DNA of 63,217 nt, taken from the NCBI RefSeq assembly GCF_003334255.1, contig NZ_QOWU01000026.1; one strand, written 5' to 3'. A model generated the notes under the pieces. It saw nothing but the letters and a program-made list of their open reading frames with translations, had not been told where the DNA came from and made no database searches. Each line of letters starts with the position of its first letter. The first letter of the stretch is position 1. Both the position numbers and the translations under genes were made by a program. Below are positions 59,218 to 62,509 of the stretch, piece after piece. The DNA is from Escherichia coli. Its GTDB lineage: Bacteria; Pseudomonadota; Gammaproteobacteria; Enterobacterales; Enterobacteriaceae.

Positions 59218-61355
59218 ATGCTGCCAGACCAGCGACCAGCGACCAGCGACCAGCGACCAGCGACCAGCGACCAGCGACCAGCGACCAGCGACCAGCGACC
59301 AGCAGTAAATCAAGAAAGTCTGTAAAATCTGTTGAGCCGGAAATTACCGAACTGGCGAACTCATGGCTTAAATCTTACAGGCTTGATTACAAGTTGCAGA
59401 ATGCATCACTTAACGGAGAGATCGATAACGCACTGGACGCTTATTTTTCGAAAAATGGCGGCGCAGGCGGTAATCGTCCCGACGTAAAACTCCTTGTTAA
59501 GGACAAATACGGCAAGCAGTATCCCGTTCTCATCGAGTATAAAGGCTACAAGGACAGGCTTATCAGACTTGGCAGCAACGGTATTATTGAGAACAAAGAT
59601 GCCAGAAAAGAATGGAATTTTAAAAATATTAATGGATACGCGGTGAATGGCGCAGTCCATTATGCCAACGCACTTCTTCAGTTCACCAATTACCCTGATA
59701 TTATTGCTATTGGTATGACCGGCTGGCGCGATGATGGTACAGGCGAACTGCATCATGAAATCGGCGTGTGGTACGTATCAAAGAATAATTTAGGAGCCGG
59801 ACAGAAGGTTGGTGAATTCACCGACTTATCGTTCCTTGCTGACAAAAATGTTGATGGATTTCTCAACAAGATAAAGCTGCTTAATCTTCCTCCCGAAGAA
59901 CTGGAAAAAATCAAGGCCAGCAAAGAGGAAGAGATAGACACGCGACTTTCCCGTCTGAATAACGATATTTACCAGAATGAAAAGGGGCTTGGTGAAAGCG
60001 ATCGTGTTTACCTTGTTGTGGCTACCGTTATTGCAACGTTGGGGATTCCGGGAAAGTTAGCACCGCTGGATAAAAAAGAACTGACCTCTTCAACGGAGGA
60101 GGACTTGCGTGATGGTGATATTATTTTCAGGAAAATAAGGAATTTTTTAAGGCTGAAAGCTGTTCCTGAAACAAAAAGAGAAATGATTTTGCGCTCGTTG
60201 CAAAATACGCTGTGGACTGAAAACATTAACAAACCAGTCAACGGTGAAAGCCAGTTAAAGCGCGTGTTTGTTAAAGTTGTTGATGATCTTGGGGAGTATT
60301 ACAAAATTGGACTGACCACCGATTTTACGGGCAAACTGTTTAATGAGATGTATCGCTGGCTTGGATTTACGCAGGACAAGCTCAATGACGTCGTTCTGAC
60401 ACCACCTTATGTTGCCACATTGCTGGCACGACTCGCCAGAGTAAACAAAGATTCCTATGTGTGGGATTTTGCTACAGGTTCTGCGGGATTGCTTGTGGCT
60501 GCAATGAATGAAATGCTCATTGACGCCAGAGAAAATATTCACTCACCGAACGAACTACAACTTAAGGAAGCGCAAATCAAGGCTGAACAGCTTCTTGGCC
60601 TTGAGGTGTTATCCAGTATTTATATGCTGGCCATCCTGAATATGATTTTGATGGGGGATGGTAGCTCGAATATCCTCAATAAAGACTCGCTGGCCGATTT
60701 TGACGGCAAGTATGGATTTGGGAAAACAGGAGAAAAATTCCCTGCGGACGCATTTATTCTCAATCCTCCGTATTCAGCTAAAGGTAACGGCATGATTTTC
60801 GTGCAGAAGGCGCTGTCGATGATGGATAAAGGCTATGCTGCAGTGATTATCCAGAGTTCAGCTGGCACAGGAAAGGCTACGGAGTACAACAAAAAAATAC
60901 TCAAGGAAAATACCTTGCTGGCAAGCATCAAAATGCCTGCGGATCTGTTTATTGGTAAATCAAGCGTTCAGACGTACATTTACGTTTTTCAGGTAAAAAT
61001 TCCGCATAACGCGAAACAGGCTGTTAAGTTTATCGACTTTTCCAATGACGGCTACGCTCGCTCTAATCGCAAAAAGGCAAGAAACAATCTTGTTGATGCC
61101 GATCGTGCAAAAGAGCGTTATCAGGAGGTTGTGGATCTGGTTCACTTCGGGAAAGGTTGCCTTAATATCTTTACGGAGGATGAATATTTTGAGGGAACAA
61201 TCGATCCTGATAGTGGTGAGGACTGGAATCAGACCAGGCCAGTAGATGCTAGGCCAACGCTGGAGGATTTCAAAAAGACGGTAGGTGATTACCTTGCATG
61301 GGAGGTCTCGCAATTACTGAAAAAACAAGGTGAAAACAATTTTGCGGGAAAGTAA
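59218..61355 (+). CDS. Putative phase-variable restriction-modification A subunit: N-terminal nuclease-like region plus gamma-class N6-adenine methyltransferase (BcgI-A-like); frame interrupted at repeat tract as sequenced
   Basis: Long ORF 59394..61355 (653 codons from TTG) with motif I DFATGSAGLL and motif IV NPPY; N-terminal ..RPDVKLLVKDKYGKQYPVLIEYKG.. PD-ExK-like; SD+ATG at 59218 is in the +1 frame, separated by the 7-bp repeats. Confidence 0.6.
59230..59299. repeat. Heptanucleotide tandem repeat (CAGCGAC x 10)
   Basis: Ten perfect 7-bp units between ATG 59218 and the long methylase ORF; unit length not divisible by 3. Confidence 0.95.
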
Positions 61356-61414
61356 ATTCCCCGCTCAGCGATAAATTAAGAAGCGTTGAGTGGGGAGAGT
61401 TCAGGATTGGCGAT

Positions 61415-62509
61415 TTGTTCTATGTGAGCACAGGCTCGCTTATCTCCTCAGGAAGATTAAAACCAGGCAAAATCAAACGTGTTTCAGCAAAGAGCGATCA
61501 AAACGGTATCATCGGAGAGTTTGATACCGAGTTTATGGATGATGCAAGGCATTATGAAAATTTTATAAGCGTTAATTTTTTTGGAGATGCTTTTTATCAT
61601 CCTTATTGTGCCAGCGTAGAAATGAAGGTGCATGTTCTTACATTAAAATCAAGTAAGTCCGACTTTAATGCAAAGCGCGGACTGTATGTTGCCAGTATGA
61701 TTAATAAAGCTTTAAAGGGGCGTTTTAATTATGGTCAACAGTTATCGAGTTCCAAACTCAGAGATGGAGAATATTTCATCTCATTACCAGTGAAAAATAA
61801 TGAAATTGACTGGTTTTTTATGGATAATTATATAGAAGAGCTGGAAGCGGCCCATATAGAAGAGCTGGAAGCATACCTGATAGCTGCTGGGCTGAGTGAT
61901 TACCAACTAACGGAAAAAGATTATCTTATCCTGGAACATTTTAAAAATATTGAATTTTCAGGCTTTCCTGTTACTGAGTTATTCTCAGTGTGCAATACAG
62001 GAAACATATTGTCTAGAGACATCATAGAAAATAGTGGGGATGTTCCTTATCTTTGTGCTAGCCGTGATAATAACTCTGTTAGTTCTTATATCGCCTATGA
62101 TGACTCACTCTTGGAAAAAGGGAACTGTATTTTTATTGGTGGTAAGACATTCGTTGTAACTTATCAGGAGCGAGACTTTTTTTCAAACGACAGTCATAAT
62201 TTGCGACTCTATGTTAACAATGAGGATGGAAGGACAAAGTTTGCTTATTTGGGCATTATTTCATGTATTTATAGGTCTATTTCACATAAATATTCATGGG
62301 GGGATAGTGTTAGTAATAGAAAAATTAAGAACGATGTTATTTGGTTGCCAGTGAAAAATAAGTCACCTGACTTTTGTTATATAAATGACCTTATTTCAGT
62401 TGTTCATAAGCTTGTCATTAAAGATGTTGTCCAGTACGCAGAACGCAAAATGAACGCATACAGGCAAGCTATAACAAGTCGCGGTTATGATGATTCTGGT
62501 GTCAGTTAA
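61415..62509 (+). CDS. Restriction-modification specificity (S) subunit with two target-recognition domains
   Basis: 364 aa from TTG; frame open back to 61334 (..VEWGEFRIGDLFYVSTGSL..); central IEELEAAHIEELEAYL repeat; C-terminal ..VVQYAERKMNAYRQAI.. Confidence 0.65.
   Translation: MFYVSTGSLISSGRLKPGKIKRVSAKSDQNGIIGEFDTEFMDDARHYENFISVNFFGDAFYHPYCASVEMKVHVLTLKSSKSDFNAKRGLYVASMINKALKGRFNYGQQLSSSKLRDGEYFISLPVKNNEIDWFFMDNYIEELEAAHIEELEAYLIAAGLSDYQLTEKDYLILEHFKNIEFSGFPVTELFSVCNTGNILSRDIIENSGDVPYLCASRDNNSVSSYIAYDDSLLEKGNCIFIGGKTFVVTYQERDFFSNDSHNLRLYVNNEDGRTKFAYLGIISCIYRSISHKYSWGDSVSNRKIKNDVIWLPVKNKSPDFCYINDLISVVHKLVIKDVVQYAERKMNAYRQAITSRGYDDSGVS
61830..61872. repeat. 24-bp tandem duplication inside S gene central conserved region
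   Basis: atatagaagagctggaagc-ggccc-atatagaagagctggaagc encoding IEELEAAH IEELEAYL. Confidence 0.85.

Follow-up and report, generated by a model that had tools for sequence, protein, structure and literature searches.

The window analyzed here is a 63,217-nucleotide stretch of Escherichia coli DNA (contig NZ_QOWU01000026.1, assembly GCF_003334255.1). At 59210-62509 it carries a restriction-modification (RM) module made of two long reading frames. The first encodes a polypeptide, here called RM, that joins a PD..ExK nuclease and a gamma-class N6-adenine methylase in one chain. The second is the specificity (S) frame, which encodes two target-recognition domains (TRDs). The long RM frame is open from 59214 to its stop codon at 61353-61355, and S lies in the -1 frame relative to it. 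A slippery heptamer directly precedes the RM stop codon, and a heptanucleotide repeat stands at the 5′ end of the RM coding region. Our analysis concerns how the S frame is likely to be translated and how the repeat may switch the module on and off.

The domain order of RM is nuclease (approximately residues 1 to 175), helical connector, and gamma-class N6-methyladenine (m6A) methylase. An initial annotation, made from the sequence alone, had described a gamma-class methylase preceded by a putative N-terminal PD-x(n)-ExK endonuclease, and both parts of that description were borne out. The DFATGSAG and NPPY motifs were found in the expected place together with a Pfam N6_Mtase match, and the RPD and IEYK motifs are present in the N-terminal part. 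The predicted nuclease residues are E11, D60 (59481-59483), and E78 and K80 (59535-59543); in 23 homologues with 31 to 85% identity, D60, E78, and K80 are fully conserved and E11 almost fully. Profile hidden Markov models, proposed earlier as a check, matched N6_Mtase in RM and Methylase_S in S, with a weak VRR_NUC match over the PD..ExK segment. N6_Mtase matched 23 of 23 family members and VRR_NUC 4 of 23 (E ≤ 0.001). The PADLOC model REase_MTase_IIG (PDLC03616) matched RM over its full length (E 3e-232), a second PADLOC IIG model of 637 positions also matched RM (E 1e-44), and the PADLOC model Specificity_II (341 positions) matched S (E 2e-24). The assignment to the Type IIG/specificity family is far beyond chance. 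The model lengths of 637 and 341 are presumably those of BcgI A and B, and the models themselves carry no BcgI label. NCBIfam gave no model for RM or S apart from an hsdM match below threshold.

Structure prediction, the second check proposed at the outset, gave an AlphaFold2 (AF2) model of RM (predicted local distance difference test score [pLDDT] of 85) that aligned with BsaXI, a Type IIB enzyme, over 651 to 673 columns, as well as with BpuSI and DrdV. A search of the PDB with the single sequence returned no match. The catalytic residues of BsaXI are E73, D90, E105, and K107 (PMC11997821), a set of the same kind as E11, D60, E78, and K80 of RM. We consider it very probable that the locus is a self-contained Type IIB module of the BcgI/BsaXI kind, whose enzyme activities we infer from its sequence. 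The BcgI-like architecture originally proposed is thus retained on the PADLOC and Pfam matches, the AF2 alignment, and the HsdS fold of S described below. Two other identities were considered and rejected. The two-subunit 16S rRNA methyltransferase of Stx phages, M.EcoPA8orf6770P-PNB-2, is of the MT-A70 kind, pairs with a winged-helix protein, and occupies a different prophage position; it is unrelated (PMC10810198). The "Type IIG methyltransferase in an operon" of O111 strains is a SenTFIV homologue in a four-gene operon-like cluster with an ATPase and is a different enzyme (bioRxiv 10.1101/173336).

The S frame encodes a linker helix, TRD1, a conserved helix (CR1), TRD2, and a second conserved helix (CR2). 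Pfam Methylase_S matched S twice (E 1e-13 and 1e-7), on either side of a 24-bp tandem repeat. The AF2 model of S (pLDDT 86.5) has the HsdS fold TRD1-CR1-TRD2-CR2, and Foldseek matched it over its whole length to the HsdS structures 1ydx, 1yf2, EcoKI, and EcoR124I. There is no ATG, GTG, or TTG in the S frame before TTG 61415. This codon corresponds to residue 24 of the modeled S, and GTG 61424, the start chosen by the Prokaryotic Genome Annotation Pipeline (PGAP), corresponds to residue 27. Both residues lie inside the first strands of TRD1 (residues 16 to 29, pLDDT of about 90), which are mirrored by residues 204 to 217 of TRD2. Since the first available start sits inside these conserved N-terminal strands, S is not an ordinary separate gene. 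The initial annotation had proposed a second gene with two TRDs around a central repeat; the two TRDs and the repeat stand, as the double Methylase_S match indicates, but the separate gene does not. PGAP annotates S as partial or split in several genomes, and RefSeq gives two plain coding sequences. A frameshift mutation as the reason for the "split or partial" calls was rejected, as the S frame is intact in every locus checked: both RM and S are intact in 15 of 15 closed E. coli loci and in the window, and the "split" S frames are open over 387 to 395 codons.

The tandem repeat in the CR1 helix varies in number. There are two copies of the 8-residue unit in the window and three in E. coli SCU-104 (L008) and in Providencia, and the number is two versus three between the Neisseria loci L017 and L018 and likewise between the viral contigs L037 and L036. 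In EcoR124I and EcoR124II, the number of repeats in the central helix of HsdS sets the spacer length of the bipartite site. The module resembles that pair in having a central-helix tandem repeat in S with two versus three copies between near-identical loci, and differs in its unit, which is 8 residues (24 bp) here and 4 residues in EcoR124. By this analogy, a change in CR1 copy number would be expected to alter the spacer of the bipartite site. One S allele, on an E. coli contig from IMG/VR (L030, approximately 2160-3365), has an additional in-frame GLADSRTR tandem repeat of at least 2.4 copies right after the central helix.

The junction between the two frames carries three candidate recoding signals (Table 1). 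RM ends with the codons GCG GGA AAG TAA, so that the heptamer G_GGA_AAG stands in the X_XXY_YYZ phase; we take this heptamer to be identical to the lambda G/GT slip site. The open stretch of the -1 frame begins precisely with the last two RM codons, and there is a stop just four codons upstream of the heptamer. A stem-loop begins 5 nt past the heptamer and folds with a free energy of -23.3 kcal/mol (z score, -5.9), which none of 200 shuffled sequences equaled. In both dnaX (A_AAA_AAG) and lambda G/GT (G_GGA_AAG), a Shine-Dalgarno (SD)-like element lies 10 to 14 nt upstream of the slip site, a hairpin lies 5 to 6 nt downstream, and the products are made in a fixed ratio. Transcriptional slippage was rejected for the main lineage of the junction, in which the run of three or four A residues is too short; it may occur at the A7 run of a second lineage that has A_AAA_AAG.

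Table 1. Positions of the module's features, followed by those of its surroundings, in the window.
Feature	Position	Strand	Remarks
RM (A) subunit	59304-61355	+	683 codons past the repeat; 76.7 kDa
RPD motif	59475-59483	+	
IEYK motif	59532-59543	+	
DFATGSAG, methylase motif I	60465-60488	+	
NPPY motif	60762-60773	+	
Internal SD-like AAGGTG	61327-61332	+	13 nt 5′ of heptamer; candidate upstream stimulator
Slippery heptamer G_GGA_AAG	61346-61352	+	Proposed -1 tandem slip site
0-frame stop TAA	61353-61355	+	Directly after heptamer; ends RM-only product
13-bp stem-loop	61358-61396	+	Arms 61358-61370 and 61384-61396, 13-nt loop; candidate downstream stimulator
S reading frame	61352-62509	+	-1 frame versus RM; 385 codons from the slip, plus stop
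24-bp tandem repeat, ×2.2	61832-61883	+	8 residues (IEELEAAH/IEELEAYL), 2 copies, CR1 helix of S; Tandem Repeats Finder
SD-like AAAGGA	59204-59209	+	
ATG	59210	+	No spacer after SD
ATG	59218	+	8-nt spacer after SD; likelier start; frame differs from ATG 59210
(GACCAGC)×11	59227-59303	+	Within 5′ coding region, directly after the start; Tandem Repeats Finder, 100% matches
Host chromosome	Bases 1-37.7 kb		
tRNA-Arg(CCT) gene	37754-37828	-	Prophage integrated beside it
Integrase open reading frame	37949-39193		Followed by prophage up to the window end
hok/sok-type toxin-antitoxin cassette	58719-59043		Between Q gene and RM module
Terminator-like hairpin and T-run	62577-62600	+	Hairpin 62577-62592; 68 nt 3′ of S stop
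Bidirectional terminator-like hairpins	62881-62902; 62941-62920	+; -	

The junction was compared across relatives sampled from E. coli genomes, IMG/VR viral contigs, one genome per bacterial species, and four distant relatives. The one-genome-per-species search returned 80 matches (L048-L127), all with 68 to 73% identical RM, from Bacillota, Bacteroidota, Pseudomonadota, Campylobacterota, Spirochaetota, and the candidate-phyla-radiation groups Saccharibacteria and Gracilibacteria; carriers include Oscillospiraceae, Bacteroidales, Helicobacter cetorum, Acinetobacter, and Spirochaetaceae. Such identity across such distant organisms indicates that the RM part has spread horizontally, very recently and broadly. 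Between E. coli loci, S is 26 to 59% identical where RM is 68 to 93% identical, so the TRDs differ widely. The sequences imply that TRDs have been swapped freely while the RM part was transferred horizontally.

An in-phase heptamer occupies the last RM codons in 87 of 94 distinct junctions (GGGAAAA in 52, GGGAAAG in 30, AAAAAAG in 4, and AAAAAAA in 1), and a long -1 frame follows in 82 of these 87. Counted over sequences, the heptamer is at the last position in 84 of 98, compared with a baseline of 1.16% per codon in the same genes. The main lineage (lineage 1) is defined by its 80 G_GGA_AAR junctions. All 80 encode the Gly as GGA and have G as the third base of the codon before it. The stop codon follows the heptamer directly in all 80 as well, but its identity varies (TAG in 47, TAA in 22, and TGA in 11). 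Since GGA and the preceding G are fixed while the stop codon varies, the constraint acts on the heptamer and not on its neighborhood.

The flanking signals are conserved as well. In an ungapped alignment of the 80 lineage 1 sequences, the hairpin is paired in 95.1% of cells, compared with 34 to 49% when the partners are slid. Compensatory changes occur in 6 of its 12 pairs, and none of 500 shuffles reached any of five measures. Pair 26-48, for example, is U-A in 31 sequences, U-G in 22, C-G in 19, and G-C in 3; where it is G-C, Glu is replaced by Gln in S and a Leu codon of the linker has changed synonymously. Covariation of the hairpin thus involves both synonymous sites and correlated amino acid changes. 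Pairing with the anti-SD sequence peaks 6 to 10 nt 5′ of the heptamer across the family, where it averages -4.1 to -4.8 kcal/mol and the background is -0.33; values of -5 kcal/mol or below are seen in 69% of sequences, compared with a median of about 13% for control windows.

More-distant sequences kept the arrangement with different parts. The second E. coli lineage has A_AAA_AAG, one further codon, and TAA, followed by a different hairpin. Relatives with 41%, 32%, and 46% identity retain the heptamer, the stop, and a hairpin with unrelated stem sequences. In a 44% identical relative (L131), S overlaps RM, is in the +1 frame, and has an ATG and an SD sequence of its own, and neither the heptamer nor the hairpin is present. 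Natural in-frame RM-S fusions also occur (P0122, with 71% identity, P0149, and P0151), as do others with half an S. One frameshift-type RM-S pair (L129, 900-2491; 32% identity) is directly downstream of the Type IV restriction genes GmrSD_N and GmrSD_C, and this proximity suggests a defense island at that locus.

At the other end of RM, the unit of the heptanucleotide repeat is 7 nt, which is not divisible by 3. In frame, the repeat encodes (DQRPATS)n, and gain or loss of a unit shifts the reading frame. With the 11 copies in the window, both ATG 59210 and ATG 59218 are out of the RM frame, in keeping with the earlier remark that the frame needs restoring; 10 copies would place ATG 59210 in frame, and 12 copies would do so for ATG 59218. 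The first canonical start inside the RM frame as assembled is TTG 59394, the annotated start of the E. coli protein. Public gene calls use both ATGs and read through the repeat (MLPDQRPATS... in P0006 and MILCCQTSDQRPATS... in P0010). Homologues without the repeat, from Neisseria, Providencia, and Methylophilaceae, begin with M and 2 to 10 residues, followed by (K)S(I/V)EP-[DN]I[AT][DE]LAN.WLKSY, and the residues of their SVEP region map upstream of TTG 59394. Because these homologues begin just upstream of the SVEP motif, the true RM start lies 5′ of the repeat, and the repeat is an insertion just after the true start codon. RefSeq minus-strand proteins of 110 to 255 residues over the repeat, named "YXWGXW repeat-containing protein" or "hypothetical protein" (L002, 6101-6718, and equivalents in L003-L016), and the RAST call "EmrB/QacA drug transporter" for the minus-strand frame over the array in a phage record were rejected as annotation artifacts, being translations of the repeat.

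The number of copies differs greatly among otherwise near-identical loci. Among 15 closed loci from genomes or phages, 99.3 to 100% identical elsewhere, the number ranges from 31 to 99; 3 of these loci are in frame with ATG 59218, 5 with ATG 59210, and 7 with neither. Strains G8, with 99 copies, and DETEC-S792, with 54, are examples of the on frame. IMG/VR loci have 9 to 67 copies. The repeat was found in 28 of 128 sequences examined (window included), only in E. coli and in both lineages of the gene. Slipped-strand gain or loss of one 7-nt unit would move the RM frame in or out of register and so act as an on/off switch. We think it likely that the repeat is such a slipped-strand contingency locus, with switching suggested by the polymorphism between strains. 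The phase-variable module envisaged at the outset agrees with copy numbers that differ among near-identical loci and cover all three frames.

These observations suggest a model for expression of the module. Ribosomes that traverse RM would reach G_GGA_AAG and TAA, and those that do not shift would terminate and release RM (76.7 kDa, plus the repeat-encoded tail). Ribosomes that slip by -1 would read into S and make an RM-S fusion of 1068 residues (120.6 kDa, plus the tail). As in dnaX, slippage would be helped by the upstream SD-like site and by the hairpin 5 nt downstream. Because no start codon precedes the first structural strands, complete S would exist only as RM-S. One RM-S and one free RM would give the composition (RM)2S that BcgI and BsaXI need; these two enzymes act as (RM)2S (PMC3874165, PMC3592470, PMC11997821). 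Such a complex would be expected to methylate a bipartite site and to cleave the DNA on either side; the assembly, the activities, and the recognition site are all predictions. The geometry is feasible, as an engineered M-S fusion of EcoKI is functional when free M is added, as it requires (PMC3510504). We regard a programmed, dnaX-type -1 ribosomal frameshift where the RM frame ends as quite probable; we infer both the frameshifting itself and its efficiency from the junction signals. The combined account, in which a Type IIB module carries a repeat switch and a frameshift that makes both RM and RM-S, seems probable to us. With slightly less confidence, we propose that there is a large, horizontally mobile Type IIB clade that makes no free S, in which S is translated only as a -1 frameshift extension by means of a dnaX-like cassette of SD-like site, G_GGA_AAR or A_AAA_AAG heptamer, immediate stop, and hairpin, so that RM and RM-S are made in a set ratio and may assemble as (RM)2S. 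Frameshift recoding of this kind would be an intermediate between two-chain enzymes such as BcgI and single-chain enzymes such as AloI and TstI.

Several points weigh against this account. The SD-like site in the window (AAGGTG) is weak and 13 nt from the heptamer. The 3′ arm of the stem-loop consists of the V-E-W-G codons of S and across the family encodes a conserved V-E/K-W-G, so part of the hairpin conservation is protein driven. In E. coli, TTG 61415 or GTG 61424 could serve as the start of a truncated S. An ATG occurs within the linker in 21 of the 80 lineage 1 junctions, including those of Neisseria, so that some hosts may produce free S as well. For the nuclease, the predicted fold is based on motifs, topology, and the weak Pfam match, with no domain-level structural match. 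Some BcgI-like systems of other bacteria were inactive when assayed, namely, Btr190ORF12260P (PMC4996451) and NgoAVIII (10.1101/630434). The RM frame of the window is off as assembled, and the 11 copies may reflect assembly collapse, since short counts (9 to 19 copies) come from draft assemblies and closed genomes have 31 to 99. Finally, an N-terminal tail of 70 to 230 repeat-encoded residues on a nuclease domain is unusual.

The alternative that survives best is an ordinary two-gene BcgI-like system. S would start at TTG 61415 or GTG 61424, or at a noncanonical codon coupled to termination of RM; the heptamer would reflect a conserved C-terminal Gly-Lys, and the hairpin would tune initiation of S or mRNA stability. 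RefSeq annotates two separate coding sequences with S starting at GTG, and the published descriptions of classical BcgI and BsaXI give each two polypeptides (PMC3874165, PMC11997821). L131, moreover, uses a conventional overlapping ATG, but this relative with its own S start lacks both recoding signals. The linker contains ATG, GTG, or TTG in 37 of the 80 lineage 1 junctions, including the 21 with ATG, but has no ATG in 59 and no canonical start in 43. It is also conserved as protein upstream of any start (GK[VI][DN][AST][PS]L[NST].[KM]L..V[EK]WG), and the candidate starts in the window would delete the first TRD1 strands. Selection for Gly-Lys at the protein level leaves unexplained both GGA and the preceding wobble G, each found in 80 of 80 junctions, and the second lineage has A_AAA_AAG at the same place. 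We therefore consider the two-gene explanation unlikely.

Slightly less probable still is that the module is an epigenetic switch only, that is, a phase-variable methyltransferase controlling a phasevarion with little or no restriction, or with a nuclease that is inactive in E. coli. Methylases under phase variation are often regulators (PMC5909438), a Type IIG enzyme of this kind changes gene expression in Campylobacter jejuni (PMC4889913), and the BcgI-like NgoAVIII and Btr190ORF12260P had no detectable activity. However, D60, E78, and K80 are invariant, the nuclease domain is kept in all homologues examined, and identity of about 70% across phyla points to horizontal transfer of the kind seen for defense genes. 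Regulatory and restriction roles are also compatible with each other. That the locus is a decaying or silent prophage remnant, with its frame broken by the repeat, its S start lost, and its S fragments flagged as pseudogenes by PGAP, is highly improbable: the window is out of frame with 11 copies, S is partial or split in several genome annotations, and strain H29 has IS1 at the locus, but both frames are intact in the 15 closed E. coli loci and the window (including the "split" S frames), the same "missing start" is conserved across phyla along with the recoding signals, and the frames are distributed over all three phases, as a switch would give.

The genetic setting of the module is that of phage cargo. 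The gene for the Q antiterminator ends at 58688 and is followed by the hok/sok cassette (an Rfam sok match at 58719-58893 with 118 bits and a 51-residue Hok/Gef open reading frame at 58888-59043) and then by the RM module. As cargo, the module occupies the late-operon slot of a lambdoid prophage, with the Q antiterminator and hok on one side and the lysis genes on the other. A sigma-70-like promoter (TTGAAA-16-TAGAAT, 58685-58712) is at the expected site of the phage late promoter PR′, and because of this position hok and the RM module may both belong to the late transcript. The stretch from hok to the RM start showed no clear sigma-70 promoter. Immediately upstream of the RM start region, and overlapping it, is a 17-bp imperfect direct repeat (TCAAAAAACGATGATTT, ×2.1; 59183-59217) that may serve as an operator or belong to a promoter. 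The hairpin and T-run that follow S are, judged from the sequence, the likely end of the module transcript, and the bidirectional terminators foreseen after S are present further downstream. Just 3′ of the module, at 62696-62912, there is a full-length match to the gammaproteobacterial small RNA STnc100 (Rfam RF02076; 149 bits, E 3e-34), which terminates at the plus-strand terminator of that pair.

Phage PhiR12_3 of ECOR13 has the same DNA, 100% identical apart from the repeat, and 30 of 5,426 complete E. coli genomes carry it too. In PhiR12_3 and in strain G6/7, the genes after S are a small open reading frame, a SASA-family esterase, holin, lysozyme, and Rz, and no HsdR or helicase-nuclease gene was found past S in these identical loci, as the initial annotation had anticipated. 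Its reading of the module as prophage cargo also held, since the module follows the Q antiterminator gene and a 73% identical pair occupies the same slot in a Providencia prophage, as an island of two open reading frames between antiterminator and holin. In Neisseria relatives, the pair is likewise a bare island of two open reading frames, flanked by housekeeping genes. In O111:H8-type and related strains (L009-L013 and L015), the sequence diverges from the window approximately 300 nt after S (query coverage ends at base 3502/3521), and the diverged stretch contains a pseudogene annotated as "site-specific DNA-methyltransferase," which is truncated. In one strain, H29 (2015C-3121), an IS1A element is inserted in the locus.

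A BcgI-like module on a phage is not new. The public RAST annotation of the phage record (PV340552) already reads "restriction enzyme BcgI alpha chain-like protein," and Sau42I is reported to be a BcgI-like system on Staphylococcus aureus phage phi42 (Dempsey et al. 2005, cited in PMC2853133). The two are alike as BcgI-like RM systems carried as lysogenic-conversion cargo by temperate phages and differ in host and phage type. We know of no heptanucleotide repeat in Sau42I. In the literature searched, whose scope left out most subscription journals and REBASE, no description was found of programmed frameshifting in Type IIB, Type IIG, or any other RM systems or of a heptanucleotide switch in E. 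coli RM genes. To our knowledge, there is no other programmed recoding event in restriction-modification systems.

If confirmed, frameshifting at this junction would add RM enzymes to the short list of bacterial genes with programmed frameshifting. It would explain why annotation pipelines call S partial or give it arbitrary starts, and it would offer a simple route from one transcript to an enzyme with a 2:1 ratio of RM to S and no free, unpartnered S. Cloning such loci as two separate genes would then give inactive enzymes; any bearing on BcgI-like systems described as intact but inactive is speculation. In E. coli prophages, the proposed frameshift is stacked with a hypervariable on/off switch, and a heptanucleotide switch of up to 99 copies is unusual for this species. 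Such a switch means that lysogens of one phage could differ from cell to cell in their restriction barrier and methylome.

Among phase-variable systems, the repeat resembles those of Type III mod genes and of the Type IIG enzyme Cj0031 of C. jejuni, in which a 5′ coding repeat with a unit that is not a multiple of 3 varies in copy number between strains (PMC4889913, PMC5909438). It differs from them in its 7-nt unit, its array of up to 99 copies (693 bp), and its host, an E. coli prophage, and in the (DQRPATS)n tail, as long as about 230 residues, that an array in frame gives the protein. As for recoding, the module shares with dnaX and lambda G/GT the same kinds of signal and the making of two products from one mRNA. 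In dnaX, however, the shifted frame stops at once and gives the shorter product, whereas in the module it is the unshifted frame that stops at once, and the shifted frame adds a DNA-recognition part of 385 residues. The engineered EcoKI M-S fusion follows the same logic, in which M-S plus M gives M2S (PMC3510504), but that fusion is artificial, made by removing a natural 1-nt overlap, and natural EcoKI relies on translational coupling with a real start codon.

Among Type IIB enzymes, BcgI and BsaXI share with the module an N-terminal PD-(D/E)xK nuclease, a helical connector, and a gamma-class m6A methylase in one chain, an S with two TRDs and two conserved helices, and the lack of a translocase. 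Unlike theirs, the S of the module lacks its own start and follows a slippery heptamer in the -1 frame. RM also differs from BsaXI in lacking the knob and paddle extensions (683 residues versus 916) and in having sequence similarity to it only in the methylase domain. The predicted RM-S, of approximately 1070 residues and with the order R-M-TRD1-CR1-TRD2-CR2, is like the single-chain Type IIB enzymes AloI, CjeI, PpiI, and TstI (PMC3874165, PMC4027205). Those enzymes make only the fusion, with one RM for two TRDs, a stoichiometry that the Loenen review calls a mystery (PMC3874165), whereas here both RM and RM-S are predicted from one mRNA. If this prediction is correct, the module connects the two-chain and single-chain architectures of Type IIB enzymes.

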